From NCBI GenBank assembly GCA_008632985.1, contig QPGO01000026.1, positions 620,001 through 684,000 on the forward strand: DNA of 64,000 nucleotides, written 5' to 3'. Position 1 is the stretch's first letter. The number at the start of each line of letters is the position of its first letter. This DNA comes from Psammoneis japonica. Its lineage: Eukaryota. The notes beneath the pieces are model-generated. The model saw only the letters and a list, made by a program, of their open reading frames with translations, was not told the DNA's origin and did no database searches. The translations under genes and the position numbers were made by a program. This document shows, piece after piece, positions 14,082-48,796 of the stretch.

Positions 14082-14519
14082 GGTGAAAAATGAAAGTGAC
14101 AGCAAGGTCGCCTCAACGGGCCAAGCCGAAAATTTGGCGCGACCTCGTGACGTCATCTGTCAGACGGTTGCTGCACTCTGTGCTACTGCCTGTTTTGTTT
14201 TTTGCTGTCCATTGGCACCTCTTCTGGTCTTTGCGATCATGGTCATGCGACACAACACGCTGTAGACACACATCGATTGACGCAAACACATGTTGCCTGA
14301 CACAATGTTGCGTGGCTCTGGCTGGGTTTTCGATCGTAGGGAGTTCCTCATTCGACCCTGAATTTCCTCAGACAAGGAAAGACAAGGAAACCAGATGAGG
14401 AAAAATTGATTGTCGTGACATGCCACGCAGTTGCAACTGACATGATCCTTTCATCTGCTCTGGCGGTCAACGGCTTGTCTCTATCAGAGCCTGTGGCTGC
14501 CAATGCACTTCAACGCACT

Positions 14520-14900
14520 GCATTCAACGAGCAAGGCAGATGCCGTTGGGCGCCACAATCTTGGGTCCAAAGAGACAACATGCTTCCATGTTCTCTCCCA
14601 GCATGTTCTTTCCAATCAAGTCCACAACAAGCTCAAGCTGGGAGAAGAGACTTTCAACCAATGCACTTGTCAACAAGGAGCTCCTTGTGCTTTCTCTGGC
14701 CATCCACACCCGCATTGTCCATCGTCGACAACGGCTCATCACGCACGACGAGTTCGTTCCCCTTGAACTTGAGCCCATGGTTCCGTGTGCTTTTTCACTC
14801 ATGGCAGTGCACAGAAAACACGCGCAGCACTGCAGCTGACATCATGATCTACATGGGATTCTGTGCGAATCTTGGCACAAAGATTTTTCCTTGTCTTCTT
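14520..14900 (-). mobile_element. Possible decayed hAT-type transposase C-terminal (dimerisation) domain
   Basis: WMARES...LLTSALVESLFSQL...GKNMLGENME resembles the hAT 'AR.YL...ATS...E..FS' pattern; heavily mutated. Confidence 0.3.
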
Positions 14901-17900
14901 CCTTGTCTTGGGCTGACCACTTCCTTGCGATCGAAAACCAACCCTGGTTGTCTCGTCATCCGAGTGAGTTGTTGTTCTTGGCGTCACTCGAGTCGCAAAC
15001 AATGTGAGCAGATGCATTCCAGGTCAAGTTGCGTGCAGACTTGGGTGGCCACAGAAGGAGGAAAGGTGGTGCTGGGTTGGCGGGCACACGATTGATGGAA
15101 AAAGGTGATGGGATGATGAATGATGTGGGCAAGGAGGGGGGCAGCAGAGCAAGGTGACAGGCTTGTTGCTGTGGTGTGGCGAATGTTGAGTGTCGGGGCA
15201 CTCTGGTTGTCTGTTGACAAAATCAGAAAGAAGGGCCCAACGGGCCAGTGCCAGCTGCAGTGCCATCGTGCCTCCTGGAGATCTGGAACATTTGGCGCAA
15301 CCTGAGTTGTGGCATGCAGCTTGAAGCCAGGGGGGGGGGAGCAAGAGAGCAGATGGGACAAGAAATGGTGCACTGGTGCACAGAAGACACAGCAGCAAGG
15401 CACCAGCTGGCAGCAAACACAGGTTTTGCTGTTGGAAAACAAAAGATTTGCACTCTCAGACAGCTCCATGGTTGGCATGAATTGCAAGTTTCATGGAAGG
15501 AAGCTCAAGTGCCACGCAAGTTGCACTGTGTTAAAAGGTGAAGTCAAGTCACAAAGACTCTTGTGTTGAAAGCAATGTGAGTCAAAAAGCAAAGAGGGGG
15601 GGCCTTGCTGGGGCGGAAGAGAAGTCCTGGCTCGGTCCACTCGCCGGGACGAGCTGGTTGTTTGTTTTGCAATGGGCTTAATTTTGACATCCAAGCAGTT
15701 GAGAGCAAACTCCAAATGCAGTTTTGACACAAAATGACCAGTTTCTCAAGGATTTTCCTTCACCCAGTTTGTGCTGTGGTGCGAGTGCTGTGTGGACAGC
15801 AGCTGCAGCTCGGGGGCCAGTGCCAGGTGGCAACCCAGATGCATCAGCTTGCTCTTCAAAAGAGCTGCAGTCACAACCCAACAAAGCTGGATGGCAGTTG
15901 CCAGAAGCAGATCTCTTGCTTGAGGTGAAGCTGCTGCTGAGCTGTTTTTGCACATGAAGAAAAACAACAAGAAAGCTCATTTCCAGCTGTGCCAGTGGGG
16001 CTGCTGGGTTTGCAAGTGAGAGCAGGGGTCGTGCTGCAAGCTGGGGTGAGCAAAGTCACCAGAGACAACTCAAACTGGGGTCATGTGCATGATCTTGAAA
16101 AAAGGGAACAGGAGCACTGGATCAAAAGAAGAGAAAAAAAGCAGCACTGCACAGGCAAGGGCACCCTGCCGAGGCAGCAAAAAGCACGCCAATTGGCTTT
16201 GCTCCCCAGGTGCACCAGCTGCTCCCCTGCAAAAGAGTTTTGTTGTTGCTGTGTTTCTGTCTTGTGCTTGTCATCAAAGTTTTGCATGTGTGCCGGACAA
16301 GCTGATGATTTGAACAAGGTGCTGAAGCAACACACAAACATGGAGTGTGCGCATGGAAGTGGGCCGCATTTTGTGAAGGAGTTTCTGGCAATGCAGAGCA
16401 GCAGAGAACCTGCTGTGCAATTTAAAACCACACACAGATGAATCATGGTGAGGCACTGAAAACCGCGACAGAGCAAACTGGCGAGGGAACAAACTGCAAA
16501 GCATGGTCATGGTGTGCAAGCACAAAACTCTTTTTCTGTGTTCTGCATTTTTGATGCACTGGCCAAAGGACTGCTTCAATCTTGACATCTCTCAGGCTTT
16601 GCTTCTGACAAAGTGATGAGGGTTCCAATGTTTGTGCCATTGGCTGCAGGCACCCCGTGGCCTGTCATTGTTTTGTCTTTCGCTGGTGCGAACACAGTGG
16701 CACAACACATTGTGCACAGGCAGATGGGTGTTGTGTCATTTTTAAGGGGCTCAAGTGATTGTTTTGTTGGGCTCATGTGATGTTTTGTGTCAGTGGGCAT
16801 TGCATCCAAGTGTTTTGGCCAATCAGAAAACTCTTCCTGAGATTTGCGACATTTTTGTCAAAGGAAAAGAACAAATGAAATGCTTTTTCTTTTGTCCAAA
16901 CAACAAATTGCAATTGGCCACATCGAAACAAAGGCAATTTGTTGATGTCACATGTGTCATGACATGATGTGATCACATTTGTTCTGTTGCTGCGTCACAA
17001 TCATCACAACACTGTCGCGCGGCCCTCCAAAAACATGATTGGCGAACTTGGCATCACACAATCACACTTCTACATTCACGAACAATTTTTACAACTCCTC
17101 ACATGCGTTCTCATCAAAGAATGCTTTTTCAGGTGGTGACGTCATTCGTGCCATTTTTTTAACAACTTTGATGCCTTCCATCTCGAAAACGAGTCAGAAT
17201 CCCCCCACTTTTCTCGTTTCCAAAACATCTCTTTTACTCAGCTGCACAACACAAGCGAATCATAAAAAAATCTGCAGAACCATTTTGGAGACATTTTTGC
17301 TTTCATGCAATCGTGCAGCATGTCACAAGCTCTTTTTATGAATTTTGGTCTCAACTTCACGATCGGTGTTCCATGCATGGCAACACAGACAGAACCCTGA
17401 AACCATCATTTCCTCATCCACCTTCATGCACTGCACTTGGTCCATAAAAGTCAGACCCATCCATCCGGTTTGAAAAATCTCGCTCCGTTTGCTCCTCCTT
17501 TCACCAACCAATGAGGTCCCATTTTTTCAAAATTCCAAAAAACAAGTTGAAACTCCAGGCCCTGATCGGCACATGATGCTTGGTTGACATGCACCTGACT
17601 GCAAGACGCCTCTCCGGGTCCCTCCCCGTGAGGCGAAACACTCAACCGGCCACACCATGAGAGCGCAGCCGGTCCATCTAGAGGTGGGACCTCGTCCCAC
17701 TGAACTGTGACATCGACAGTTTTTTGAATTGCGTCGCATGTCGCGCACGCACATTTCTACGTGATTTTGGCGAAATTTTGCATCATTTTATAGCACAATT
17801 TTCAGGTGATCCATTCACCAACTTTTCAATGTTTTTTTCTTCTACGCCATTCTCGAGTGTCTCAAGAATGGCGCAGGGCAGGCGTGTTGTCTAAAACTTT

Positions 17901-18240
17901 GAGTGCGAACAGAGACACATGTGCTGCAAACTTGGCCGTTCATTTTATGTCGAAGACAAACACATCCATTAACCACAGTGCGAACTGCAGAGCTCGCACG
18001 CAGAATTCTACGGGGCAAATGTCACAAAAAGTCCCACCTGGGACTGGAACCCGTCAGCAAGTTCAAGGGGGCAAGAGTGGCGAGCACTCAACTGTGTCTC
18101 CACTTTGCGAAGGTGTCCCAAGTCATCTTGTCACTGTGCTGGGATGTGTTGTCCTTGTCACATCTGAGTGTGCACACTCCCAATGCTCTGCTCTGATTCT
18201 GACTTCATTGGGGCAAACTCAAAAACTCTTGCAATTTTGT

Positions 18241-18580
18241 TGCGGATCCCACGATCGGCTCGCGAGTCACCACGTGCACCAGCAGAAGGTTGTCAGTGGT
18301 TGTTCTTTGAACAAAAGGCATGGCATTTTCTGCAAACATTTGTGTCAAAGCACGTCTGGGTTTTGGGCACAAAGCAAGCGTGGGTGATGCCCTCCCAAAC
18401 TGGCGGGAGCTGGCTGATGCCTGACGACGCTGGCTGTTTGCTCCAACTGTTTGTTCTGTTGTGTGGTGGAAGTGTGTTCTCATCACATGCTGAACACTGA
18501 TGGCTTTGGACATGCAACAAAATGGGATTTGAGACTGCTGAGCACACCCCATGACATCTGAAATGATCAAATCTGATGAT
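18241..18580 (+). repeat. Decayed duplicate of intergenic 51496-51831
   Basis: tgcggatcccacg..., gcacgtctgggtttt, ggctttggac, tctgaaatgatcaaat shared in order. Confidence 0.85.
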
Positions 18581-19149
18581 GATCCTTCTGTGTCTGTGCA
18601 GTGTCATCGCTGCTGTCCGACACACACGCAGGCCACCAAATTGAAAAGAAATTTGCAACAAATTCCAAATCCCTGCACAATCGCTGTGCAGTGAGTCAAG
18701 AAATGACCCTTGTCACCCTCCAAGATCGTCTTTGCAATGCAGGCAATGTCCTCTGGTGCATTTTCAAGGTGCAGGCGTTCTTTCCACTTTGATCAAGAAA
18801 AGATGTGATGCACAAGAAATGACAAGAAATCCTCATTTTCAAAGGAGGTTGCCTTGTTGCGGCAGCAACTCATGCCAGCTCATTGCAAGATTTCAACAAA
18901 AATGTCCTTTTGGACAATTGCGCCGCCTTTCCTCACAAACAAAACATTGTGCGGCTCTTCATGATGACAACAATCTGATTGGTTTGTTGTTTCATGTTGC
19001 TTGCAGACTTGTGGTTGTTGAAACAGCAGCAGCATTTGCTCATTTGAAGCAAAAAATGAAGCACTCAGAGACCTTGCACATGCTTTCATTGTGAAAAAAT
19101 TTGAGCTGTTTGTCTTGGCAAATTCACCTGCGATTCGCAAATTTTGCAT

Positions 19150-20035
19150 TTCAGCAGCAGGTTGAGTGCAACCAGAGAGTGCATCAAAGTGGCCAAGGAA
19201 CAAAATCTGTGCCAACCAAGTTCTTTGTGAGCATGTCACTGCAGTGGGCCACAGTGGGAAATCTGTCAAGTCATGCCAAATCTCATTCCACCCAGTCTTG
19301 CAGAGCAAAGTGCTTGATGTCCATGTGGCGTGTCTGGTGGGTGGGGCGACTGGCATTGGCCATCAGCAGAGAGGCTGCATTGTCCTCATGCATCAGCACA
19401 GCCTGTGTCTGTGGCACATCCAATTGGTCAAGAACAGAGCACAAATGCAAAGCCATCTCACCAGCATCTGATGCTGCAATGAACCCTGCCTCTCCAAGGA
19501 AGAAGTGGACGCTGCTGTGGGCTGGACCCAAGTTTTCCACATGACAGCCATGCCAGCAAGCAGGAAAGCAATGCCGCTGATGGAGCGGCAGTGACAGATG
19601 TCAACAGACCAATCAGAGCCCTTGCAGCCAGTGAGTTCCATGGGTGATGCTGCGTGTGGGGCAGGTCCGCACAATTGTGAGGTGCCACAAGAGGGAGCAG
19701 AGGAGGGGCACACAAGAATGCAGGGTGAGACAAAGTGCACCAGTGCATCAAACCAAAATTGAGATGTGCGAGCAGATGCCGCAGTGCATGTTTGATGCCT
19801 TTGCAGTGCAGCAGTCCAGGATTGGAGCAAGTTTTGTGACAGCAAAACTCAGGTCAAAACAAGCAGTCATTGTCACCCATGTGATTTCACCAATGGCACA
19901 TTGGCATGAGAACCCTTGAGCAGTCTAGAGAGACTTGACAGATGCAGTGTCTGATGGAGTGGGAGCTTTGTCCAAAAGTTTCATGCAATCAGAGTCTCCT
20001 GGCATGGGTGTTGCCGGTTTCATGGGGCCATTGGA
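19150..20035 (-). mobile_element. Decayed Ty1/copia (CoDi-like) LTR retrotransposon RT C-terminus + RNase H fragment
   Basis: DLSFAVTKLA, LTGCKGSDWS..RSISGIAFLLAG, FIAASDAGEMALHL, HEDN, TRHMDIKHFALQDWVE, SDMLTK; expected Tyr appear as His/Cys. Confidence 0.9.
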
Positions 20036-20109
20036 TTTGGAGCTGCTGACAAGGCAAACAGATTGGGGCAGTTTGCCAGAATGCGCTTGATGCAAGAAGT
20101 GCTGTGATT

Positions 20110-21160
20110 TTCAAAAAACACCACAAAAAAACCTTTGGCAAAGAAATCTGCAAGGTTGTTGGCAGAGATGGCAGATGAAATGTGAGACATGCAACTGCTG
20201 GAAGTGCCAGATGATGTCTCTTTTTGTCTGGCTGCATCTGACAAAAATTGCAGCACCAATCAAACAGCAAAGAACATCGTGCTTTGTGGCAAGCAACTCC
20301 TCTCTCATGTGTTCACGACTTGCATCATTCTTTGACAATGACGCACAAGTGGCGAGAGCAAAAAGGAAAATTTTGTTGCACAACAACACCTGGTGCATGA
20401 TGGCAGACAAGAAAGTCACAATCAAAGACTTCAACCAAACTTTTTGAAAAAATTCCATGATCTTGTTTGCATCTCAAGGCATGGACAAGTGGTGGCGCAA
20501 CTCCAGAGACACCAGCTGATGTTTTCAACAAATTTCAATCACCGCGCAATTGTCCACAGATTTTCATCAACATCTGAGATTTTGCCCATGCAGGAACCCA
20601 ATGACAAAATCTGAGCCTGAGATTGTGGCACAACAGCAGCCACTTGCACACATTTCTTGGTGTTGAAAACAAGTGTGCTGCACCATTGAATGTGCGCCAA
20701 TTGTTGCCATTGCACTCATTTGACAAACAAGTCTCGTTGGTTTTTTTTGCTGGTGATGTCAATGTCGTGCATTTGCGTGACACAGCCATGGTGTTTCACT
20801 CCTCCTCCAGTCAGTTTTTGTGGCCTTTTGATGGTGGCAGAGGGTGCCAAGTGGAGCTCCAGCATGAAGATGATTGCAGAATCTCCATGGAGTTGAAAGA
20901 GAAAAGTGGCAAGCTTGTGGTGGTTGTGAGAAGGGCTCTTTTGCCCAGACAGTTGTGCCGTTTCTTTGAGTTTGCTGGCGCCATTTCAGCAGAGACCACA
21001 GACATGGCTCATCTCTTTTGTGAGCAATGCAGGATTGCCAACCCAGTCAATCACCCATTGTTGACTTCAAATGGCTTGTGCGTCTCAGGAAGAGGGGTGA
21101 TTTCTTGTTTTGGAAGAAGTCAAGGTGGGGCTGTCCCAGCAAAAGAAAACAATCTCCAAG
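20110..21160 (+). pseudogene. Decayed duplicate of the upstream region and 5' CDS of the GNAT-like/ankyrin gene (~51845-52862)
   Basis: CQVELQHEDDCRISMELKEK...AISAETTDMAHLFCEQ vs YKVELQYEEDYRISMELKEK...AISAETIDMARLFCEQ; upstream non-coding DNA also aligns. Confidence 0.92.
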
Positions 21161-21283
21161 TCAACATCAGTGGTCATCTCAAGGGCACTCTTGCAAGTGA
21201 AGTCAAGGTTGATCTGCCCCAGCAAGAAAAGAATCTCCAAGTCAACATCAGCGGTTGTCTCAAGGGCACTCTTTTGCAAGTGG
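21135..21283 (+). repeat. ~68-bp tandem duplication (2 copies)
   Basis: aatctccaagtcaacatcag(t/c)ggt..tctcaagggcactctt..gcaagtg twice. Confidence 0.8.
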
Positions 21284-21421
21284 CAAAAATTGCACACCAT
21301 GACAAGTGCCGCTAACGCATCGTCTTGCAGCACTGTGCCTGTTGCAACACTGACTGCCAAACCTTGTGCATGTGATCCAACAGCATTGAAGCACATGCTC
21401 ATGTTTTAGATTTGATGAAAC

Positions 21422-22915
21422 ATGTTGGATTCATCAACAATGCTGCGGTTAAATGGCGACACTCACAGAAACACACAAAATGTGGCTCCAAAGCACAGCA
21501 TGACCCAGGAGAGGCAAATCGCACTTGTTGATCCCAAAGTCAACCTTTTGATTAATCCAGTGCTTAATTTGGAATGTGATGGGCATGAGACACTGCATCA
21601 CATTCTTGGTTGTGACCCCAGTTGGCACAATGTTTTTTGGAAGGTCAAGGCTTTCATCAAAATGGATGCCGCCAAGCAGAAGATTGAGAAGAACCACTGG
21701 GGCAAGCTCCCACAATGGGAGAAAGACATGTGTGGACAAAGGATTCTTGTGTTGAATGAGCAAAAGGCTGCTGTTCATGAAAAGTGCATGCAAGCAGCTG
21801 TCAGAACTGCAAAGTTGCCGCGATCATTTTCACCCATGCCAAAACAGGTCATGGAACAAACACCAGTCACTGCAGACATTGACGCCACCGGAGAACAACA
21901 GGCAGAGCCACATGGCAATGAATCTGACAAAAGACTGACATCAGCCGGTTTGTCAGAATTGTCAAAGATGTTTTTTAGAGGCAACAGCAGAAAGTGTTGC
22001 CCCAGAACTCCAGTGCTGCAGTCAGTGGAACAAGCAAGTGCCCCCACCAATGACAGCAGCTTGAGCTTCAATCTGAAAGCCACATCAATTTTTTCCCCAA
22101 CAGAAGAATGTCCAGCTTTGGTGGAAGATGCAGAACAGGCAAAAAATCTCAATCAAGAAGTCACTTTGCATCTGACAGGAACAAGCACAGCTTCTCTCAG
22201 CCAACAGGTGGACAGAGCTGCAATTGACTCAATTCAAGCACTGTTCAAGAAAGCAGGAACTGCTGCTGATGCAACACACTGTCCAAATCGACTTGACAAT
22301 GAACCATGTGTGCATGTTGTGTGCTTGGTGTTGAATGGGGTTGAACTTTCCAAGACTGATGGCAGACAATGAAGTGTGATTGACCTTCCTGCCAAAAAGC
22401 CGGGGGTGCTGTTGGTCACACATTCAGGGGATGACACAAGAAACCCTGCAATGCAAGCATTCAAGGCTGCCACTGGGGGCAAAACAAGAAGCAATGATTG
22501 TTTTAATTTTTGCCCATTGGCTGTGGGTGAGGACAGTTTGGTTTCATCTGTCGTTGAGAAGTGCGTCAATGTTTTCAAGAAGAGCCACACAAAACCATCC
22601 AAAAAGCCTCGAGCCTTCCCTGAAGTCATGCAAGAATTGTGAACAGACGTTGGATGAACAGCACGCAGCACTTCAACATCTGGAGCAAACTGCCAGCATG
22701 AGTCAATGTGCTGCCACTTTAGAAAAATTGATGGCCTGGGGATTGGGGTTGGGCAAATCTCATCAACTCGTGCCAAGTGGATGAATCAGATGATTGCATG
22801 GAGCATGCTGAGGAAGTGTCCTGAGACAGAGGGTGGTGCAGCTGCAGATGGATCAATGTGTTGCTGCTTGCATTCAATTGAATGCTTGTGCATGAAATGG
22901 GAGTGGACATGTTGA
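21422..22915 (+). pseudogene. Decayed coding sequence of unknown family
   Basis: Protein-like but Tyr-free 316-aa ORF continuing through TGA stops and frameshifts. Confidence 0.35.
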
Positions 22916-23422
22916 TTAACCAAGAAGATGTCTTGACCAATCGTGGCTTTTGGTTTTGCTTCAAAGTCTGCATTTTCAACAGCCCTCTCAGACTGTCGAC
23001 TTGCCCTGAACTCTTCCTTTTGTAACTGGCCATTTTGGATCTGTTGCTTGCATTGCTTGTCTTCCTGGAACAAGTTGGTGAACTTTTGATGCCTTGTTTA
23101 AACTCCCTTTGATCGGTTTTGGGTGTGCTGCAACGATTGCTTTTCATCTTTCCGGCTCTGGCTGACCTTTCACGCGTGCAAGCTCCTTGTCGAGTTCTGG
23201 AACAGCGCACGCACCGACTTGACATTGGCTCCCTAAAATTCTTTTCATGCTGCAGTCGTTGTCTCTCTTCCTTCCTTCTCTCTTGTTGCAGCAAAAGCAA
23301 CGGAGTCGCTTCGCTCCCCCTCTTCCCCCCTCTTCTTCCGTCGGTACCTCCCTATTTTCGGGTCTCGAGACGTGCACCTCATCGATGCAAGAAGGAGCTT
23401 CAAAGATATCTGTAGCCCCGAC

Positions 23423-24478
23423 ATGGACGGCGACGATGCCTCACGCTGCTCGTCGTTGGGCAGCGATGATCCCCTCGATCGAGATTGGCTTAGCGAATCC
23501 CTCCACAGGTTCGAATCTGTCCGCAGCGAGGAGGGACGAGCGCCTCAGCAATGGACAACGAACGCTTCGATGGAGGATAGGGACCGTACGATGATTCCGT
23601 TCACGATTGTAACGTGGAATCTCTGGTTCTCCCGCCACCAATGGCAGGCCCGCCTCGAGGAAGCCATTTGGCAAACGATCCGGGAGGAGCCGGACGTTTT
23701 TTGCTTTCAGGAGGTGACGACCGAGGTACACAGTTGCATGATCAATTGTCGGTATCTATGCGAGAAGTACGAGCCGACGGAGCAGCGTCTCCCACACTGC
23801 TACGACGTAGCGATATGGGTCAGGAAGTGCGAGGCCGGGCGCCGATCGTCACGATGGCAATGCAGAACAATTCCGTTGGAGAGCATATATGGGAGAAGGG
23901 GGCTGTGTGTTGATTTGGAGATCACAACCTTTCTAGATGGAAAATGGGCGAGTCGAGTTTCAAGAGTGAGAATCGTCACAGTTCACCTAGAAAGTGGAAG
24001 GGAAATGGCGGCCGTGAGGATACAGCAATTGGATTGCATCTTCTCTGACATCCGCAGTACTCCATGGTGCGTCGAGGAAAGACATAGGGGTGCACAAGAG
24101 AACAATCCAAAAGATGCGATAGGTACATCGATGCTCCTCGGGGATTTTAATTTGGACCCCTCATTCCCAGAAAACTCGCTGGTGGACTCGAATGGTATTG
24201 ATGTGTGGAAGGCTCTCCGTCCAAACGATGATGGATTCACTGAAGATACGAACAGGAACGAAATGAGATTCCTCGCGCACGGCAAGCACAAAAGGGCTCG
24301 TTACGATAGGGTAGTTCTTGTTCCTCAATGTGTGGGTGAACATGGTGTGAAAGCTCGACCATGTAGCATTGATCTCTTGGGTGCAGAACCATTTGATAAA
24401 AAGGGAGAAATGTGGGTGTCCGATCACTTCGGCCTCATCGCACATCTTTGGTTGAGTGAAAGAATTGTTGATTCATAA
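23423..24478 (+). CDS. Endonuclease/exonuclease/phosphatase (EEP) protein, TDP2-like
   Basis: VTWNLWF, PDVFCFQEVT, TVHLES, GDFN, RYDRV, SDHFGL; intact frame with normal TA/CG content. Confidence 0.85.
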   Translation: MDGDDASRCSSLGSDDPLDRDWLSESLHRFESVRSEEGRAPQQWTTNASMEDRDRTMIPFTIVTWNLWFSRHQWQARLEEAIWQTIREEPDVFCFQEVTTEVHSCMINCRYLCEKYEPTEQRLPHCYDVAIWVRKCEAGRRSSRWQCRTIPLESIYGRRGLCVDLEITTFLDGKWASRVSRVRIVTVHLESGREMAAVRIQQLDCIFSDIRSTPWCVEERHRGAQENNPKDAIGTSMLLGDFNLDPSFPENSLVDSNGIDVWKALRPNDDGFTEDTNRNEMRFLAHGKHKRARYDRVVLVPQCVGEHGVKARPCSIDLLGAEPFDKKGEMWVSDHFGLIAHLWLSERIVDS

Positions 24479-31281: not shown

Positions 31282-31299
31282 CAGCATCTTTGGGGCGAG

Positions 31300-35986: not shown

Positions 35987-36590
35987 TTGACAGGGTCAAT
36001 GTTGATGAAGGTTGTCAACAAAAGTGTGTGGCCGCATCACAAGTTCACAATCTTTGACAAGGAACTTGCAGCAGGAGGAGCGCACATGAAAATGGTTCTG
36101 CAAGAGTCAAGGAGCACAACATCTTTGCCAGAGGCATTCTGGTGTGAATGCAAAGAGGTGTTCAGAAAAACTCAACCACAAATGGAACAATGTGCAGGAC
36201 AACACAAGGAGGAGAACAGCAGGTGGGCAAAACAGCACATGTGTTTGCCAGTTGTGCACAGGATTGTCCAGTGGGCAAAGTGTCAGCTCTTTTGTTTTTG
36301 TCAATGCAGCTGCTGCTTTGGAGGGGCTGCTGGTTCAGTGTGATGATGTGATCAAGGGCAGGGCAGACAAAGACACACGTGTGTGGTTCTTGGAAACAGT
36401 GGCACCAACTGCGGTGGGCCAAGTGCAATTTGGCAGAAGCAATGCAACAGATTTGCTTGGAGAGAGGCTCGCCACATCATCAAAGGCCTTTGCTTTGCTG
36501 GCACACGTAAACTGCCATGTCATGGTGCTGGTTGACACAGCGGAGAAGTTGGAGAAGGGTGCAACAACATTGCAGGGTGCAGGAAGATGA
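35987..36590 (+). mobile_element. Decayed ORF resembling accessory proteins of diatom DNA transposons
   Basis: VWPHHKF...FW...KLNHKWNNV and ATSSKAFALLAHVNCH recall a 'T.SDEAFALL..ENY'-type motif; family from memory, unverified. Confidence 0.3.
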
Positions 36591-38688: not shown

Positions 38689-40658
38689 AGGAAAAATCCT
38701 GAACCAAGTTCTCCCCTAAAACTCCAACCACCAAAAACTGAGGGCACAGAAGCACATTTTTGGCAGCGCTCTTCTCCACACAAAAAACATGCGTTTTGAC
38801 AACTCGACCATGATGGTGCCTCATGGTTCTTCCCCATCGCCTTCCCAGGATGCCGATCCCACTGATGCCATTGCCAATGACACTGATGCAATGGGTGATG
38901 TCATTGTTCCAGTTCCCGTGGGTGCGACACATGCAAAATGAGATGCCACAAACTCACACTGTTGTTTGCATGCTCCACCGCCTCCCACAGACACCATCAC
39001 AAATTCCAAAGCTGCACCTGTGTTTTGGGCCCCTGGCATGCCTGACACTGTCACTCCTGCCCTCACTGCTGCGTGCGCTGTTGACACTGTTGTTGTCTTT
39101 TGCCAATGACGTCCACAATGAAATGCCAACAACTCACACTTCTTTCATTCTTGCCCCACCACCTCCCACAGATGCCATCACAAATTCCAATGCCGCACCT
39201 GCATTTCGGCCCCCTGGCATGCCCGGCACTGTTGCTCCTGCCCTTGCTGCTGCAGGTGCTGTTGACACTGTCATTGTCTTTTGCCAACAACATCCACAAT
39301 GAAGTGCTTGCAACTCACACTTCTTTCATTCTCGCCCCACCGCCTCCCACAGATGCTGTCACGAATTCCAACGCTGTTCCTGCGTTTTGCCCCCCTGGCA
39401 TGCCCGACACTGTCAATCCTGCCCTTGCTGCCACAGGCACTGTTGACTGTTGTTGTTTTTGCTTTGGAAGGAGCACAGTGGATGATGGCTGACCAGGAAA
39501 CCCATGCAACCACGGCCTGCTGATGGACGACACATCAATGGACATGAACAGCGCCTCTCAGTCAGCGCACGAGCGTGGTCCAATCTTTAGAATGTACAGA
39601 CACATTGTGCAGCTTTCTGCAAATTAGAAACCTGGTGACAATTGGATGGCAGGCATGCTTTCACAGTTTTTTAGTTTCAAGTTGGAGAGGTTGGCGAGTT
39701 GGCACTTGTTTGCAGGTGACTTGGCAAGGTTTCAAGTGGTGCATGTGACTTGGACACTGCTCTGGGTCATTGTGTGCAATTCCATGAGAGGCCACTCTTG
39801 CCATTTGAGTTCCACATGTGGCGCACAACACACTGTTTTTGCAAGTTGCCAAAACAGAGGCAGGTGGCAACGTGCTTTTGGCAAATGCTCGCTGTGTTTG
39901 TCACTGTCAGACCTTCAAAGCTGGTGCCATGTCGACAGCTGTGCTGCTGCTTTGCATGCCGGCACCTTCTCTGCCCGCATTCCATTGGCTGCATCCTCCT
40001 TCACATGTTGCTGCAGCTCATCTTGACACCTGCTGTCAGCTCCGATTGGCTCCACTGGGCTCTGGGTGAGCCTCAATCACCTCCAGATGGAGGAAGTTCT
40101 GCTTGGGAATGATCATCCTGAGAAAAGTTGTCACCACACCTCCTGTCATGGATGCTCCTCTGCCACGCCCACGCCCATGCAAGGAGTGTCGACCAGCGCA
40201 CTGGTGCTCGTTGATCCTGTGTTTTCGTTGTTCCAAGCAAAATCGCCTCGCTCTGCTGCCACCAGGCCCGCTTGCATCCATGGCAGTTGGAGCACGAGTG
40301 GGATTGTTCGCCTTGTTGTTGCATTGTGCTTGACTGCAGTGCTCAATGACAAATGGCGGCAATGTCGTCCACGTTCAACCTTGGATCTGATGAAAATGGG
40401 CCCAAACTTCAGGATCGCAAATGGGCTGCAACAGCGGGTTTGACGGTGCCGGCCAATGTGGGAGAGACTGCCGTGTCAGGAACGGCAGGCGGGTGTGCGT
40501 CAGGTGGTGTGGGGGACGAAGAACGGGAGGTCGTCATGGTCGAGTCGTCGAAACGCGTGATGTTTTGGTGTGTGCGCTGTCTTCCAAAAAGTGCGCTTCC
40601 GCACCCTCGGTTTTTGGTGGTTAGAGTTTTAGGGGAGCTGTGGAACAGGAATTTTTAC
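38689..40658. mobile_element. ~1.97-kb DNA transposon remnant with ~150-bp terminal inverted repeats
   Basis: 38691 gaaaaatcctg...ctcccctaaaactccaaccaccaaaaactgaggg...ctcgaccatga matches the reverse complement of ~40510-40658; superfamily and TSD not resolved. Confidence 0.8.
38937..39452 (+). repeat. ~181-bp tandem repeat x3 (probably a decayed ~60-aa coding repeat)
   Basis: aactcacact, cctcccacaga, cccctggcatgcc, ctgttgac recur in units starting ~38937, ~39117, ~39298. Confidence 0.85.
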
Positions 40659-40990
40659 TTATGGAATATACACACATGTGGATATTAACATTGAAACTCA
40701 ACGTACGGCGACGAAGCCGTGCGCGCGCAACCACGAACACAACACAGCTCCCTGTGGTGTTCGAGTTTCGCGTAGTGCGTGGTCTACCGGTACCATATCA
40801 TACTGTTTGATTATTCTTCGCCATCTGTTGTGCTCGGTAAGTATAAGAGGGGGAGGTCGACAATGGTGGTAAACTAAGCGACTGACCGACTGACTGATTC
40901 AATTGTCTTGTCGCTTAACTCTAGCCTACTCCATCATTCCACCAGATTGAAGCAATCCGAACTCTCTCTTCCTCTTCTGTTGATATCATC

Positions 40991-41593
40991 ATGAAACTCT
41001 ACACAACCGCCATTCTTACCCTCTCGGTTCTAGCCAACATGGTCTTTGCGTCTTCGGATCTGATGGAGATGGAACAAGACTATAACAACCTTCGTGCCAA
41101 CAGCAAGTACGACCAGAATCACCGTGGCAACCTCTTCTTCTTGCACGGTCATCCGCGCTGGTGGGACAAATGGTGCCGCTGGGCCTGCAAACTCGAAAGC
41201 AAGACTCTGTGCGTCGATAAGTGGTGCAAGTCGTCACCCATTACTTGTTCTATTACAACTGGTTCTCCTATCTTTGCCAATCAGGACTTAGCATTCAATA
41301 TCGCTTTTTCGAATGATTCGAGTGAAGAAGTCACGCTCGCTGCAGGCTCGTTTTATGAAGTTAGCGACTCTAATGGAATCGTGGTAGATGCAGAGGGAAC
41401 AGGGGATTTCCCGGAATTCCCGCTTTCCCTGGAAGGTGTAAAGGTTAAAGGTGGGGCTGCTAATCAGGGGGGCTTGGGCACAACCATTCCAAGTGGTTAC
41501 ACAGTCGTCGGTACCTACGAAATTGAAGTTGTGTTCAATGCAGAGGGTCAAGGATTTTGCACTGCAGAAGTTAATGTCGTGGCTAATATTTGA
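40991..41593 (+). CDS. Secreted 200-aa protein of unknown function (beta-sandwich-like C-terminus)
   Basis: ATG in good context, signal peptide MKLYTTAILTLSVLANMVFAS, normal TA/CG content. Confidence 0.7.
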   Translation: MKLYTTAILTLSVLANMVFASSDLMEMEQDYNNLRANSKYDQNHRGNLFFLHGHPRWWDKWCRWACKLESKTLCVDKWCKSSPITCSITTGSPIFANQDLAFNIAFSNDSSEEVTLAAGSFYEVSDSNGIVVDAEGTGDFPEFPLSLEGVKVKGGAANQGGLGTTIPSGYTVVGTYEIEVVFNAEGQGFCTAEVNVVANI

Positions 41594-41923
41594 GTAAAAT
41601 GCAGTGCACCATGAGCATAGAAGAAGAAGAAGAAATGCGTGTGAAACAAACAAAAGAAGATTCGAATGACGATCAGTGGAGCAATGCATGGGATACAATT
41701 TTTAAAATAAGCAGATAACGTGAAGGCCACACGTCATATCAAAGGTGCGCGTGTTATTGATTTGCAATAGACAGCCCTTTTAATCTCTCGAGGCACAATT
41801 GCTGTCTCCATTGGTGCTGGCGGTTCCCTCCAGGTTGTCTCTGAAAGAAACGTTGAGGTTCTGCGTCTGTTACATTGATGCTGGAGATTGGCTGGATGCA
41901 GTTTGAAGCGAGCAATAAAGGAG

Positions 41924-42074
41924 GAGGATGCGAGACAATCACGGGATGACTCTGATGCCGCCATGGGGATAGAGTCGTCTCTCTTGGCACGAGATAATGA
42001 TGTGATGCCAGAGTTAGAATTCATTTCGATGCTCACGCCACAGTCCATGCAGGAGTCACATTGATTGATGGGTG
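41924..42074 (+). pseudogene. Duplicate fragment of the ankyrin gene (53602-53747)
   Basis: gaggatgcgagacaatcacgggatgactctga.gccgccatggggatagagtc nearly identical; CpGs largely retained. Confidence 0.9.
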
Positions 42075-42509
42075 CTGCAGTGCTTGTTGTGCACACGATG
42101 GCATCAAATCAATTTTCTCTGTGCCCTCTGCTTGTGCTTGATGTCCTTTTCCAGATCATCATCAAGAACAACAACAACAACACCTTGGGGAATGACCACA
42201 CAATGTCTTCCTCTTCACAGCTGCTGCACTTGCAAGAACAGATGGAATCAAGCCCTGCTGGTGATGGCTCATGCCGGCGCCATTTTGGCGATTCACAATG
42301 CAACACTCCCAAACCATCACCACATTGTCAGCATCCTCAAACTCTTCCTCATTGGCCGTCATGGCTGCCAGACAACAGCTTGACCTGGTGCAATTTTTCC
42401 ATTTTCCTGAAACAGCGTTCAAAAGGTGGCCCAACAAGTGCAGCAAGCCAAACACCTCATGTGTTGGTGCCGTGCTTCACCCACACCACAATCCAATGAA
42501 AAGAGGCAC
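42075..42509 (-). pseudogene. Decayed duplicate of the 3' part of the 54837-55844 gene (54789-55216)
   Basis: AAMTANEEEFEDADNVVMVWECCI vs AAMMANEEEVEDTVNVVMVRECCI. Confidence 0.9.
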
Positions 42510-42937
42510 CTCCTTCAATGGGTGTGTGAATGCACAAGTGAGTCTTGGGATGAAAATAAAAAATGCTTTCAATGCAGCACATGTTCAGTGCAGAAACCAT
42601 TTCATCTCTGGCAGAAACAACAATGTGAGACAACGGAGAATTGCAGCTGTTTTGCTGTTGAATTTTTTCAGCCTGGAAAAGTCATTGATTTAGATTCAGA
42701 CAGTGTCAGTTCTTGTTTTGATCCTTGAATGGATGCTTTTGTTGATTTGATTGGCCTCAGCATGTGATGAATCAACACCAGTGCAATTGCTGCCAATGAT
42801 GCTTGAAACAAGAAGCGCTGGCTGCCGGACCAAAAGCATTGTTTTCGAGCCATCATGGTGAAAATGACAGCAAGATTGCCTCAGTGGGCCAGAGCCAAAA
42901 ATTTGGCATGCCCCCCCATGACATCATCAGACTGTTG
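42508..42937 (-). pseudogene. Decayed duplicate of the 5' part and upstream region of the GT32 gene (13724-14170)
   Basis: LFQASLAAIALVLIHHMLRPI vs LFRVSLAVLALVLIRYMLRPI; colinear nucleotide alignment. Confidence 0.92.
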
Positions 42938-43309
42938 TGACGCACAACCCTGAGCTTGCCTCTGGGGTCCACTTCCTTGGTGCAAGGAGCCTCTTTGGCC
43001 TGTTGGGCCACAGCCAATTCCTGCCTCTCTGACACTTGTTCCACTCTCTCTCGTTTGAGGTAGAGACAAGCTTCTTGCCCATCTCCATGAAAAGCAGACA
43101 CAGGCTCAAACTTTTTCCTGAGCGCTGCTTTGTTGTCCCTTCTTTGGCACAGCTGCTTGGCACTGATTTCTGCTGCAATGCAGGCCCCGACAACCCACCC
43201 GACCTCTTTCTTTGGACCTCTTCCTTCTAAGACTTCCTCCTTGCCACACTGCCCACCATCACCCCCTCTCTTGGCAGCCTCAGAGATCCTGCTGTCGCTG
43301 CTGCCCCCC

Positions 43310-43315
43310 NNNNNN
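43310..43315. other. Assembly gap (N run inside poly-C)
   Basis: nnnnnn flanked by C runs. Confidence 0.95.
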
Positions 43316-44740
43316 CCCCCCTCCTTCCTCAATGATGGAGCACAACTTCTTTTTTGGGAAACAATTCTCTCAAGCTCCCACTGCTTTAGACTGTCTCTCT
43401 CTCTCTCTTCAGAATGGCCCTCACTCTCACCTTTGCCTGTGTGCTCTCTTTTGATGCTTCACCTCTGCCCTTGCTTCCAACCCCCGTCTTCCTCTCTGAC
43501 TCCAGCCATCTGCTCTTGTCAAATCAAAAGCACTTCCCAACCTGACACACCATCTCTGTCATGCTTGTCAACAGCATGCCATTCTTGCTGCTGCCCTTGC
43601 TGGTGCTCCTTCTGGTGTTCAAGCCACTCTTCCCTCTCTTTTGTCCTCTCCTCTTGCCAGCCTGCCACTGCAGCACTCTCTTCCACCACTTCGCAGCCTC
43701 CTTTTGTGCCTTGCCTCTGATGAGGAGTGCACTGCAGCAGCTCAGTGCAAGCTGCATCTGCCTGCACTGCTGCCCACATGCCCCATCAATGCTCCTTGTC
43801 CCTGTGGACATGCCACTCTTGATGCCTTTGGTGATCACACTTTCTTTCTTCACCTGTGAAGGCACAACAGTCACAAGTCCAAATTGTCCAGCAGCACTTG
43901 TGACACCATTTTTGTCATTGTGTGGGCCCTCAGGCCTCTTGAAAAATTGTGTCATTTGCCCAATGACACCTGGCTGATGTTGGCATTGTCACCCCTCCTC
44001 CTGCTTCCCTTGCGACCCCCTCCCACCACCATTGCATCATCGCTGTTGATGTTGCCATCCCCAAAGCTCCTTCTCATGACACTCCTCTGGGTCTCTCCCC
44101 ACCCTCTCCACTCCAGTCTCAACTGAGGATTGCAACAGGAGCATCATGAGCTCAAAGTTGCTCTTGCCTTCTGCATCCTCTGCTGATGGCTCCCTTGCTG
44201 CTGCACAATCCCTTGACAATGGCGGAATCTTCCTCCTTCGGTCCTCTCACCTTTGGTCACTTGGGTGGTCTGGGCTTCTTTTTTCATCATTCCTTCTTCA
44301 GCTTTTCTTTGCTCACTTTCTGCTCTCAACCCAAGCTCCCCAGCCTGACCCATCTGCCCTGCAACACTCTGACACTTCCTGCTCTGCTTTCTGCCATGCT
44401 CTCACCTCACCATCTCCCTTTCTGTCCTCTGCTGACTTTGCTTGGCACCAAATCACTGCTGGCCGCTTTGGCAGCACCCACCACTCTGCTTCTTCCTCCC
44501 AATGGGCCATTCAGACCCTTGGCAGCAACATTCTCCATCATTTCATTGCCCATGCGTTCGGTTTTCTCTCTGCTCTTCACACCGACTGATCTCCGATTCC
44601 TTCTTTGAAACGCCCTGCGTGCTGTTTCATGCATCCTTTCTTTGCACCCACTCCCACAGCCGCCCGTTTGCTGCCTCCCCCACAAGACTGAGCAGGCTCT
44701 CTAAATCTTTGCTTGAGGAAGTGCAAGTGAGAGACAAAAC

Positions 44741-45450
44741 TCACAGCTGCAGACACACATCAATTGAGACAAAGCTTTTACCCAGCATGGTGTTGTGCAG
44801 CTTTAGTTGGTGGCAACGCTGTCCGCCTCTTGTTCAGGTCAATTGGAAATCAACGTTCATCCAACCCCATCCATTTTTTCACAAACAAGCTCTCTGATGT
44901 GTGGGCTTGCTCGTCCCACATTCTTGCCTTGCATCGAGCCAGTCGCACAGACTGCAGGTTTTCGTCCCAACGATCCTCAAGCTCCAAATCAAACAGGTGC
45001 TTGTCAGCATGCAGCAGTTTGTTGGGACGCAACTCAAGTTTTCTTGATCAATTTGATTGCTGTCAATGGGCATCTTTCAAATTTTACAGGCACAGTGTTG
45101 CGGTGGTGGACAAGCGGGCTTTGGAGCCCGCAGCGCATGACTCACATTTTCTCTGGCCGCTCTTTCGCTGGCTTTGACGCACACCCCTGTTGCATCATCT
45201 GTTCGAAGAAACCTCCCTCCTTTGGATCGCACCCCATTTGCAATTTCCTGTGTGATGCTTGGCTTTTCTTGCTTGGTGGCCTCACGGCACCGTTTTTGAT
45301 TCTCGTCGATGGCTTCGTGAAAGAAACGATTTCATTCATGACTTCGTTTGCCTCTTCCTAAAAACACATCGAAAGGCGATGAAGGTGGGAAGTCAATCTG
45401 AGTGCAACTGGGAGTGTCCGGCAATTCGTTGGCAGTGGCAGGTTCCTTTG
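44741..45450 (-). pseudogene. Fused decayed duplicates of 47550-47860 and of the DUF6824 gene segment 50703-51123
   Basis: gcttgctcgtcccacattcttgccttgcatcgagcca shared with 47708-47744; ELPDTPSCTQIDFPPSSPFDVFLGRGKR vs ELPDAPSSVQIDFPPSSPFDVFLGKGKR; join at ~45030. Confidence 0.9.
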
Positions 45451-45499
45451 GAGAATCCGCAGCCCAACTTTCATTTGACAAGCCGGTGGCTGCAGCAGA

Positions 45500-47009
45500 G
45501 TGCAGCGATCTGGGGGGGATCACAATGACTGGTGGTGATCTGAGACATCACTGAAGCGTCGGCAGCCGGAATGCAAACTTCAACCACAGAGAATCTTCTT
45601 TCCTTTCCACCGTTGTCGCCGTTTGCTCTGACACCAATGAGTGAACTGAAGGATCTTTTGTCTTCCATTTGATGCTCATTGTTTTCTGTGCTGTCTTCAG
45701 ATGACACCAAATCTTTTGAATGTTTTCTGCTTTTCCCATTTTGCGTTGCTGCTGTTGCCACTGGCTGTTCCGCTGCCTCCTCCATCTTGACAAACAGCTC
45801 GGGGTGTGCCAGCTGCCTTGCGTCATTGCGCGCCCCTGTTCTTTCCTCCTCCGTGACCATCACTGACATCATGATCATCGTCACTCTTCTCGTTGTGATC
45901 CTTTTCACAGTGGTCATCATGGCTGGGAGATCTCTTGCACTTTCGATTTTGTCTGCCGTCGTTGACATTGTCAGCAATGTCAACATCTTTTGCTTCTCGG
46001 AAACGTTTGCCCGTGGAGTTCACACACATTTCCCCACAACCTTTGTTTTCTCCTCCCTGCTTGATGCAAACAAAGAAACGGGGCTTTCTTGCATGCTGCC
46101 AATGTTGCAGACACTCATCGCCCCTTTTCTCCACATCGGCAGCATTCAGATCATTCACCGTGCCTTTGTTGCTCTGGAGAAACTCTTGGCAATGCTTTTT
46201 TTGCAAAAACTCATAAAACTGTTGCTTCACTTCAGGTGCGTTCATGTCTCCCACCGTCTCATCACTCTGCAAAAATTCTCTCCACAGTGATGTCATTTGG
46301 CCGTCTTTTGCTTTTCTGTTTGCTCCATGTCAAAGAAGAACGGAATCGGGCGGAATGGGCTTGGGGTTGTCGGATGGCCTCTTGACACTCGTTGCCGGCG
46401 AGGATGCTTTTTCGGAGTCTCCCTGTGTGACCGTGACCTGCGCAACTGAGGACAAGTCTGTTGAAACTGGAAATGTGAAGCGGAGAAAGATGCAAGGCAG
46501 ACTTGACACAACAGAACCTTTGGAGAGAAAATCCCTCGCACCTTCACTGTGCGATTCGACGTTGCTTCTTGGTGAGACAGCCAGGGCTTGCACGGCTTGC
46601 CTTTGAGGGGTGGCTGCAAAATCAAAGGGCTGACTCACCAAGTCATCAATTTCATGGTCTGAGAAATGCAAAGCCGTCTTGTTTTCTTCGACATAGAGAG
46701 GAGAAATGATTTGTGATGATTTCATCATCAGAAGCGAGGAGGGAAAGGTGGCGGTGGCAGGACACTTCTTGCAACTTGCCTTGGAGATTCTTGACTTTTT
46801 CTTCCAGCTCTTCGATCTGCATGTCCTTCCTGGCATTGACGAGTCTCAGATCAGACTTTTCCCTTTCCAGCTCTGTGATCTGGATGTCCTTTCTCGCGTT
46901 CACGAGTTTGAGATCCGATTTGAGATCAGCAACTTCTTTTTCTTTTGACAAGAGTTCATTCCTGAAATTCCTTGTCTCAGGTGTCATGGACGAGATCGGT
47001 GTCACTCAT
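45500..47009 (-). pseudogene. Decayed gene for a coiled-coil protein with internal repeats
   Basis: KSDLKLVNARKDIQITELE / KSDLRLVNARKDMQIEELE repeat; acidic segments spread over several frames. Confidence 0.45.
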
Positions 47010-47640
47010 GGTAGATCCTGTTTGCTTGCTCAGCACGGAAGCGCTTCTCTTGCAACAAAAGACAAGGATGGTTCGCAGCAAGTTGTGTCGTGTCAGCTCT
47101 CTTTCGTGTGCTTCGTCGTGTTGTCTTCAAGAGTTTTTTTGGAATTTTTCAGATCCAGTGCAAATCTACGTTGAAATGTACGTAGCCTTTTTCATGCGCG
47201 GATGACAGCATCAGTGCTGGAGATGCATGAAACATGTGGCATGTAGAGAAATGCTGATTTGGTCGCATGGATTGCGAACTCCAAGTCTCCATTGAGCATC
47301 AGATGTTCAGATTCGAAGGTAAATAAATTCACGCCTCACCAGCGCATGACCGAGATCCATCCTTCATGTTCGCATGAAGCGTGCAGAAAGTTTTTGGCGC
47401 GCTTTGAACGTCATCAGACCCAACCATTACATTGTTGTGTTGTGTTGTCGGCACCTGCGTTCATGTGTGTGCATTGCTCGAGGGCTTCACGGATGGGATG
47501 AACCATTGTTGAATGCAGCACAAGCATGTCCTTCCGATCCATGGGACACAACACGCTGCAGACACACCGATTGACTCAAAGATTTTACCGTTGATGGTGT
47601 CATGTAGCCTCGGTTGGTGGCAATGTCATCCCACTCTTGT

Positions 47641-48489
47641 TCACGCCAATTGAAAATCAACTTCCAACCCTGGCCATTTCTTCACAAACAAGCGCTCTGA
47701 TTTGCAGGCTTGCTCGTCCCACATTCTTGCCTTGCATCGAGCCAACCGCACAGACTCTAGCCAGTCATTCAATTCTAGCAGGTTCTCGTCCAGACGATCC
47801 TCAATCTCCAAATCAAATGGGTGCTTTTCGGCGCACAATGGTTTGTCGGGACCCAACTCATGCTCACGACTGACCTTTGACTTTGCTTCAAGCAACCAAA
47901 ACCATGATGACCCGCGTTCCAATTCTCGCAGTTGTTTTTCTAACTTTTTCTTTTCGAGTCGACCAAACCCTTCAAACTTTGTGCCATGTTCAACTCGGCA
48001 TTTATGATGTGCTTTCCCGCATTGTTCTCTCACATGCTCTTGCACATCGTCATTGGTTGGAAAGCGACTCTTGCAACCTGCAATGGGACATTCAAACTCA
48101 TGCTCCTCCTCACCCATTCTCCGCAACTCTGCAAGCGCTCGTGCATTGCCGCACTCCGAGCCATGCGCCTCGTCCAGGAGTTCAGCCCGCCTGCGTTTTC
48201 TCCACTCTGCTTCCTGTTTCTCCTGACACTTTGGATCCTTGAGATCTTCTTGTCTTGTTCGCTTCTTTTGTTCCAATTCTCTCTTTTTCTCAGGGAAACG
48301 TTCCCAGCACCAATCGCCAGACCACAGGCCCTCCTCAATCTCACAAAAGCCATTGGATCGACACCACTCTATGCTCTTGCCTTCTGTGCCACCATTCGGT
48401 CGGTGAAACGTAATGTCCTCCTCTTCTTCTTCACTGTCTTCATACCATGGATCATCCCAGTCGCGGCATCCTTGTCGCCAATGCGCCAT
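47641..48489 (-). CDS. C2H2 zinc-finger-like protein, partly TpA-eroded (gene or young pseudogene)
   Basis: FECPIAGCKSRFPTNDDVQEH; acidic N-terminus, basic coiled segments; one Tyr after ATG 48489. Confidence 0.5.
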   Translation of the reverse strand: MAHWRQGCRDWDDPWYEDSEEEEEDITFHRPNGGTEGKSIEWCRSNGFCEIEEGLWSGDWCWERFPEKKRELEQKKRTRQEDLKDPKCQEKQEAEWRKRRRAELLDEAHGSECGNARALAELRRMGEEEHEFECPIAGCKSRFPTNDDVQEHVREQCGKAHHKCRVEHGTKFEGFGRLEKKKLEKQLRELERGSSWFWLLEAKSKVSREHELGPDKPLCAEKHPFDLEIEDRLDENLLELNDWLESVRLARCKARMWDEQACKSERLFVKKWPGLEVDFQLA

Positions 48490-48796
48490 GGCCGTTTTCC
48501 TTTCGCCCATTTCGCTGCAATGATGATGTTGAGCATCATGCATCATGCATGCATGGCCTGCGGCAGGTGCTGTACGGCATGCATGCACATTATCCCGGGA
48601 ATACAACCCATGTTGTATTCCGCAGTATTTCTCCGTTGAATTCTACACATTGTGCTGACCGTTGCCCCACTTCAGCGACCGCATCTTCCGTGTTCTTGTG
48701 GAGGAAGCACGGGAATTTTTCCCGCATCGAAACAACCGGGTTGTTGCATGGTACGTCGCGTTTTTGATAGATTTATGCAACAACACAACCGAGACC

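Follow-up and report, generated by a model that had tools for sequence, protein, structure and literature searches.

Repeat-induced point mutation (RIP) of fungi changes C to T mainly at CpA and raises TpA; duplication sets it off, and both copies are hit. Enzymes of the TadA/ADAT2-3 and ADAR types convert adenine to inosine, which is read as G, and their natural substrates are RNA: the tRNA substrate of TadA/ADAT presents A34 behind U33, native TadA favours U-A-C, and ADAR prefers a 3' G. Deaminases also serve antiviral editing, in the case of APOBEC. The closest described system comes from mutation accumulation in the rhizarian alga Bigelowiella natans, where, according to a preprint, 231 of 302 nuclear mutations fell in two silent viral regions, a single-copy integrated nucleocytoplasmic large DNA virus (NCLDV) and a virophage region (Mettrop et al. 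2026, 10.64898/2026.01.13.699255). The same text reports that 230 of these 231 de novo mutations were A>G or T>C, all on TpA, and that TpA mutates there at about 6e-7 per site per generation; in mutation-accumulation lines, hypermutation of this kind would show a de novo rate about 1000-fold above that of the genome. It further describes 124 clusters of TpA-poor, CpA+TpG-rich windows across the genome and low-TpA coding sequences enriched for reverse transcriptase (RT) and DDE domains; its authors propose, by inference, an ADAT2-like DNA adenine deaminase and state in their Discussion that ADAR-type enzymes favour a 5' U (10.64898/2026.01.13.699255). Here, we analysed a window of 64,000 nucleotides of the diatom Psammoneis japonica (GenBank assembly GCA_008632985.1, contig QPGO01000026.1, positions 620,001 to 684,000, forward strand) and show that four tracts of it have lost nearly all TpA and gained TpG and CpA.

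The depletion is plain in 2-kb bins, which, like the TA-free runs, are independent of how tract limits were chosen. The observed/expected ratio (o/e) of TA is 0.01-0.12 over 14-22, 26-40 and 42-48 kb and 0.44-0.64 in the flanks, that of CG 0.15-0.75 in depleted bins against 0.81-1.13, and that of TG/CA 1.35-2.02 against 1.0-1.37; the last bin, 62-64 kb, has TA 0.14, CG 0.30 and CA 1.97. The longest TA-free run spans 2,028 bp (33435-35463), and tract 1 holds two others (18009-19926 and 19926-21313). Borders are sharp at 14012, the final regular TA to the left of tract 1, and at 40622, 42015 and 62195. Pooled ratios are descriptive and no independent test, since tract limits were set from TA counts: the depleted tracts (32,750 bp) contain 114 TA against 2,143 expected (o/e 0.053), 749 CG (0.384), 3,515 TG (1.73) and 3,538 CA (1.72), and the flanks and islands (30,650 bp) 1,191 TA (0.544), 1,586 CG (0.956), 2,237 TG (1.215) and 2,304 CA (1.169). 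Over the tracts, the 1,159 TA and 946 CG lost (2,105 together) compare with 2,203 CA and TG gained. An earlier note on this DNA, made from the letters alone, had described TA as nearly gone, CG as reduced, TG and CA as abundant and the flanks as normal, and the 2-kb bins bear it out; it had also seen no TA in 33437-35462, and there is indeed none in these 2,026 bp. Its span for the depletion, 14270..48500, holds as to the depletion itself, but two islands of normal composition interrupt it and its right edge is graded.

The tracts recur in a public sequencing run (X1, whose kind we guess to be DNA), which contains 87% of the words sampled from 40-50 kb. Its k-mer contigs, at a depth of ~28-35, show 0 differences to 34100-35512, 37630-38588, 41926-43308 and 43316-44933, and these exact matches exclude an error of assembly consensus or polishing. 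Among the 40 read differences listed, with 1,593 further ones, 9 oppose TG or CA in the window to TA in another copy and 13 oppose TG or CA to CG. Tract 3 contains a scaffold gap of 10 N at 43310-43319, and the X1 contigs on either side of it stop at 43308 and 43316.

The footprint resembles that of B. natans closely. In both, A>G or T>C at TpA gives TpG and CpA in discrete regions beside ordinary DNA, and low TpA goes with high CpA+TpG; the cut-offs used there (Rho <=0.43 and >=1.52) are far exceeded here. This preprint thus supplies what had at first been taken to be lacking, namely a description of de novo TpA->TpG/CpA hypermutation. The differences are nonetheless several. The host here is a diatom (Stramenopila) and not a member of the Rhizaria. 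The process is nearer to saturation, with a TA o/e of 0.05 against 0.45 in the NCLDV region. The DNA hit here consists of satellites, pseudogene fragments and repeats of no assignable class, that of B. natans of recognisable viral genes. CpG loss joins TA loss here, and a 3'-neighbour rule and half-site independence are seen; the words 'CpG', 'trinucleotide', 'context' and 'diatom' are absent from the preprint's main text. TpA hypermutation of a diatom did not turn up in our literature search, which left most subscription journals outside and took in part of a 2025 preprint on diatom transposable elements (TEs). With fungal RIP the process shares irreversible, transition-only hypermutation of unwanted DNA, a dinucleotide footprint and a presumed role in genome defence. 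Yet it runs in the opposite direction, TpA being erased and CpA and TpG enriched, and it is positional, genic partner copies keeping normal TA and CG.

The direction of change was read from six fragments (150-520 bp; duplicates A to F in Table 1) for which self-BLAST gave a partner elsewhere in the window, in genic DNA of normal composition. We took the normal genic copy as ancestral, and the changes are fixed differences, not de novo events. Among 72 ancestral TA, 51 became CA or TG and 5 were kept; among 123 ancestral CG, 74 became TG or CA and 31 were kept. With strands folded, A>G affects 37% of the A in TA against 7-12% of those in AA, CA and GA, and C>T affects 30% of the C in CG against 7-10% in other contexts. 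Recoding the letters as purines and pyrimidines lifts pair identity from 73-81% to 85-94%, hence the differences are mostly transitions. Pairs A and B together lost 29/30 TA at just 3-4% transversions, which puts the TA rate tens of times above background. Their sources are the 5' part of an ankyrin-repeat open reading frame (ORF, 52444-54354) for A and the 5' end of a glycosyltransferase-like ORF (13160-14077) for B; that of D is a DUF6824 gene (50645-51262, minus strand; DUF6824 at 1.5e-21).

The sequence around the lost sites points to a simple rule. Writing R for purine and Y for pyrimidine, TA survival is 53/197 in YTAR, 33/331 in RTAR, 23/314 in YTAY and 5/349 in RTAY (RTAY vs YTAR, Fisher, 2e-20); TTAA survives best, and ATAT and GTAT have zero survivors. 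A multiplicative per-strand model fits all 16 NTAN counts: each strand loses its A independently of the other, and the 3' neighbour of that A determines the rate, with loss exponents of 2.58 for T, 1.55 for C, 0.92 for G and 0.46 for A. The products match its prediction, the RTAR class gaining mainly CA and the YTAY class mainly TG, and A>G rates in the pairs are 0.47 for TAC, 0.41 for TAT, 0.30 for TAG and 0.23 for TAA. We thus showed that the process requires a T on the 5' side of its target A and prefers a pyrimidine on the 3' side (T>C>G>A), and that the events are single-stranded and independent at each half-site; this 3' preference, acting on each strand independently, is new in the present analysis. 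Both strands are affected equally: in each fragment TG products are interleaved with CA products, the overall numbers are the same (3,515 vs 3,538), and strand-coordinated (kataegis-like) clustering was not seen in the fragments. A weaker action of the process on the A of AT without a 5' T would explain why 43 of 153 ancestral AT in the six pairs became GT or AC, and why GC o/e is raised to 1.26 in the depleted tracts. Two early proposals on this stretch are thereby upheld: that duplicates with intact partners show TA->TG/CA and CG->TG/CA, and that a second process yields A->G at 5'-TA on both strands. A lack of excess of TA->TG/CA over other A/T transitions, which would have refuted them, is not what the pairs show.

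The loss of CpG is another matter. It is patchier than that of TA: CG comes close to normal in two parts of tract 1 (14.0-15.0 and 17-18 kb) and is low in its remainder, and in tract 3 it is lost at 42.0-44.5 kb and mostly retained at 44.5-48.5 kb. TA is gone at 14.0-15.0 and 44.5-48.5 kb all the same, and pairs D and E tell the same story, with about half of their CG kept and nearly no TA (Table 1). Since TA is lost where CG is retained, the two losses are separable, and a second process removes CpG. Deamination of 5-methylcytosine (5mC) resembles this second process, given that CG turned into TG or CA in 74/123 cases and that the tracts have a CG o/e of 0.38. According to Hoguin et al. 2023 (PMC9998398), DNMT5a methylates CG in the TEs of diatoms. 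Yet 5mC deamination covers the CpG half only.

Position, not age, sets the fate of a copy. Duplicates F and C adjoin each other across the border between island 2 and tract 3 and lie at similar transversion distances from their sources (6.2% for F and 8.2% for C), whereas their transitions are 4.8% and 13.5%, and they differ in what they kept (Fisher, 0.029 for TA and 0.001 for CG). The islands are transcription-unit-sized and spared inside the depleted domain. Island 1 appears from its similarity matches to be a spared host gene, TDP2-like, with a TA-dense 3' flank (16 TA in 24609-24997); for island 2, a contig of 829 nt is identical to 40865-41693. It comes from a second run, X2, which is recorded as 'DNA?', covers chiefly genic parts and may be RNA; a third run, X3, gave no contig on the window. 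Just beyond tract 3, X1 summed depth reaches 2,343-2,990 over 48676-50009, against ~40-100 over neighbouring genes, in a stretch without a long ORF for which Pfam, Rfam and tRNA scans gave no match. A repeat family that is young and still unmutated may lie here; with its normal TA, the stretch is a counter-example to simple copy-number targeting.

Table 1. Tracts, spared islands and duplicated fragments, in positions of the window (o/e-depleted tracts by TA counts; sources of duplicates given with the feature)
Feature	Position	Strand	Observation
TA-depleted tract 1	14013..23098	.	TA 0-4 per 250 bp; 7 in a single bin at 17751
Mutated duplicate E of 51495-51831	18240..18576	+	73% identity; TA kept 0/11, CG 9/16
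Mutated duplicate A of 52351-52862	20636..21155	+	77.5% identity, 93.6% recoded; TA kept 0/16, CG 1/28
Island 1, normal composition	23099..24997	+	TA 3-17, CG 4-22 per 250 bp
TDP2-like ORF of island 1	23237-24475	+	Pfam Exo_endo_phos 2.8e-7; PDB phmmer tyrosyl-DNA phosphodiesterase 2 3.2e-6
TA-depleted tract 2, core	24998..40621	.	by composition; includes the 2,028-bp TA-free run and two tandem arrays
Island 2, normal composition	40622..42015	+	TA 7-15 per 250 bp; abrupt onset at 40622
ORF of island 2	40925-41590	+	family without Pfam match
Duplicate F of 53602-53747, inside island 2	41924..42074	+	TA kept 2/3, CG 5/7; unmutated control
TA-depleted tract 3	42016..48572	.	TA counts per 250 bp; gradual right edge, ~47.0-48.6 kb
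Mutated duplicate C of 54789-55212	42076..42506	+	TA kept 0/12, CG 1/22; adjoins F, outside island
Mutated duplicate B of 13724-14157	42508..42928	+	77.7% identity, 92.4% recoded; TA kept 1/14, CG 4/27
Mutated duplicate D of 50715-51128	45039..45455	+	81% identity; TA kept 2/16, CG 11/23
High-read-depth stretch, normal TA	48676..50009	.	TA 7-14 per 250 bp; just beyond tract 3
TA-depleted tract 4	62196..64000	.	TA 0-3 per 250 bp past 62195; continues beyond window end

The tracts carry a patchwork of local gene fragments, tandem arrays and stretches whose summed contig depth runs in the hundreds to thousands. At 41924-42928, fragments of three different local genes are joined head to tail without a spacer, with junctions at 42075 and 42507, the first of which falls at the hypermutation border; such a chimera suggests template switching or gene-fragment capture. 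A 181-bp satellite (38929-39447; 2.9 copies, 82% matches) and a 188-bp tandem array (32539-33078) are both TA-free, and over 38.7-40.7 kb the contig depths add up to thousands. One repeat terminus is common to 27907, 30722 and 33697 (minus strand), with 15 loose ends at 33697. An inverted duplication at 29880-31678 (arms ~29880-30656 and 30809-31678) emerged from protein self-comparison, with 69-72% identity over 65-83 aa, and was missed by nucleotide BLAST. Neither Rfam nor a tRNA scan gave any match in the window. Long ORFs occur in the tracts because TAA and TAG are impossible without TA and because TA>TG/CA rarely makes stops. Examples of 313-368 aa lie in TA-free DNA, at 33814-34917 (+), 47644-48642 (-), 21419-22369 (+) and 31216-32154 (+); by a rough estimate they exceed what chance allows with TGA as the only stop, and they may be relics of real genes, although Pfam matched none of them. 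A scan of 143 stop-to-stop ORFs of at least 103 aa found no TE or viral Pfam domain; apart from the TDP2-like gene of island 1, it matched nothing but two chance hits below threshold. The tracts may thus fairly be called silent-looking and, judged by their tandem arrays and read depth, repeat-rich; the label TE-rich, which the earlier note had given to this chromatin, is unsupported.

We consider that these tracts record a TpA mutator that is real, targeted to regions and of the kind seen in B. natans, and give this a probability of about three in four. Discrete silent domains of the diatom nuclear genome would be hypermutated by position, and nearly to completion, from A:T to G:C specifically at TpA, with TpG arising from one strand and CpA from the other; the process would be one in kind with the TpA hypermutation that arises de novo in the silent viral insertions of B. 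natans. The simplest source of CpG loss would be 5mC, set by diatoms on silenced repeats and then deaminated. As to the chemistry of the mutator, we tentatively favour adenine deamination, at somewhat less than even odds: an enzyme of the deaminase fold, TadA/ADAT-like or other, would turn adenine in DNA into hypoxanthine, and it might be recruited to silent chromatin or have its lesions left unrepaired there. The effect would be the irreversible inactivation of invading or junk DNA through the loss of TATA-like and AATAAA-like motifs and of tyrosine codons.

Several points weigh against this reading and must be kept in mind. The polarity comes from only six fragment pairs (72 TA, 123 CG), in which the genic copy is assumed to be ancestral, and in the survival analysis the flank DNA serves as a proxy for the ancestral context. 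The deaminase, the modification and the chromatin state are putative, being deduced from the letters. The sparing of the islands could stem from repair or selection instead of recruitment. The target DNA could be assigned neither to TEs nor to viruses: the scan of 143 ORFs for such domains was blank, the 368-aa ORF at 33814-34917 has 0 homologues among 1.84 billion representatives, and viral-contig scans with the ORFs 56621-58693 and 47644-48642 (-) found no relatives. Finally, X1 may be the assembly's own source data, and its library type is unrecorded, so that it is not fully independent. There is also the question of which base is attacked, as A-directed and T-directed chemistry are indistinguishable from sequence alone.

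This last point opens the door to the alternative that survives best, though we hold it unlikely. The T in 5'-R-T-A might be oxidised or modified in silent chromatin by a TET/JBP-type enzyme, to 5-hydroxymethyluracil (5hmU), 5-formyluracil (5fU) or a base J-like product, and mispair with G to give T>C. 5-formyluracil does mispair with G, and dinoflagellates carry 5hmU preferentially at TpA. On a duplex, A>G and T>C at TpA look alike, and the context rule reads equally well as a T preceded by A>G>C>T and followed by A. The present data, however, hold no sign of thymine modification, and B. natans, the sole experimental precedent, is likewise undecided, its authors favouring adenine deamination in the main text of the preprint.

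It is quite unlikely, in our view, that no targeting is involved, i.e. that TpA and CpG are hypermutable genome-wide, that selection or transcription-coupled repair preserves the genes and that the tracts are just old unconstrained DNA. A mild genome-wide pull is allowed by the TA o/e of the flanks, which is merely 0.54 (0.35-0.59 within ORFs), and the size of the spared islands is what protection of transcription units would give. But duplicates F and C, of similar transversion age, met opposite fates across a border; the non-ORF DNA of the flanks has a TA o/e of 0.60-0.63, the 3' flank of island 1 is TA-dense, and the ORF-poor, high-depth stretch at 48.7-50.0 kb keeps normal TA. In 16 ORFs, the synonymous-prone codon phases 2-3 and 3-1 have TA o/e of 0.46 and 0.59.

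A RIP-like mutator triggered by duplication, which would recognise homologous repeats and mutate both copies, seems very unlikely, and the claim of the earlier note that repeats are the target is unsupported. Tandem arrays and high-depth repeats do occur in the tracts, and copies mutating independently would soon be <80% alike and appear single-copy. The polarised cases are also all duplicates, but this is so by construction, and their genic partners are unmutated. With 1.4-2.0 kb, the TA-free runs reach far past the duplicates of 340-520 bp, the most TA-free stretch (34.0-35.3 kb) is near single-copy depth, and a repeat of high depth (48.7-50.0 kb) has normal TA. The contrast between F and C follows position, and the NCLDV target of B. 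natans is single-copy according to the preprint's main text.

Editing of RNA is highly improbable as the source. Retroelement transcripts would have undergone A-to-I editing of the ADAR/ADAT type before reverse transcription and re-insertion, an idea that draws on the 5' U preference of ADAR-type enzymes mentioned in the Discussion of the preprint (10.64898/2026.01.13.699255). The domains are however contiguous, with sharp positional borders, and include satellites and local gene fragments, with no RT domain among the 143 ORFs; both strands are equally affected, with interleaved products. The mutations of B. natans, in the account of the preprint's main text, arise in place and in DNA. Moreover, the 3' order found here, T>C>G>A, is unlike the 3' G that ADAR prefers.

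To a sequencing or base-calling artefact at modified bases we give hardly any credence: the confirming run may, as said, be the assembly's own data of unrecorded library type, but its contigs of depth ~30 match four tract segments with 0 differences, every site is cleanly TG or CA with no mixture, and the mutated copies carry 3-8% transversions and indels relative to their partners, as expected of old, diverged DNA.

By the best named matches of its genes, the normal DNA around the tracts is diatom-like. Plastid-type fatty-acid synthase genes adjoin on opposite strands: a KAS I/II-like gene at 3403-4873 (-), with the N and C domains of ketoacyl-synt in two ORFs and probably an intron, and KASIII (FabH) at 5659-6480 (+), which is 64-67% identical to sequences of Seminavis, Nitzschia and Thalassiosira. 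Three ORFs in normal DNA carry DUF6824, at 7158-7700 (-), 9420-10007 (+) and 50645-51262 (-), and a hypermutated pseudogene copy lies at 45039-45455; by these matches DUF6824 appears to be a locally expanded family. An intact ORF of 412 aa at 11322-12560 (+) encodes a predicted DNMT2-type (tRNA cytosine-38) C5-methyltransferase (Pfam DNA_methylase, 2.8e-40). Its best matches overall are 45-50% identical and come from diatoms or unnamed sequences, the best named ones (44-47%) being from Cylindrotheca, Bacillariaceae and Nitzschia. This gene lies ~1.5 kb from the left border of tract 1; we considered it as the agent and rejected it, as it belongs to a tRNA-methyltransferase family, and it probably sits there by chance. 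Of 35 ORFs of the window's normal DNA scanned against Pfam, none carries a deaminase domain. At 80 metagenome loci near DNMT2 relatives (80 of 148 confirmed, 465 kb), 3/811 windows had a TA o/e <0.2, and these three are unrelated, with 73-76% GC and no TG/CA excess; the contigs are gene-dense and of mixed taxa, hence this blank is uninformative on other diatoms.

One might speculate that a chromatin-guided defence by DNA editing is homologous in diatoms and chlorarachniophytes. An enzyme with a 5'-T-A-Y half-site would act on both strands of silent domains, side by side with CpG methylation but independently of it, as a counterpart of RIP as old as the group of stramenopiles, alveolates and Rhizaria (SAR) or older. 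We regard such shared descent as doubtful on present data. If true, TpA editing would permanently erase TA-containing signals from invading or junk DNA, and its agent would be a natural DNA adenine editor, relevant to the base-editing field. Any candidate enzyme has to act behind a 5' T, with the 3' order T>C>G>A, on each half-site by itself, equally on both strands, within positional borders and independently of CpG loss. This opens a comparative route to it, in which deaminase, TET/JBP and methyltransferase families are set against the footprint across lineages. Such DNA also calls for care in annotation, as TA-free sequence, having TGA stops only, yields long spurious or relic ORFs and conceals TEs and viral insertions from homology searches. 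So far, TpA hypermutation had been described for one alga of the Rhizaria, in a single preprint. Its near-saturated footprint in a diatom suggests that it is not the curiosity of one strain, and it may be widespread among marine protists.

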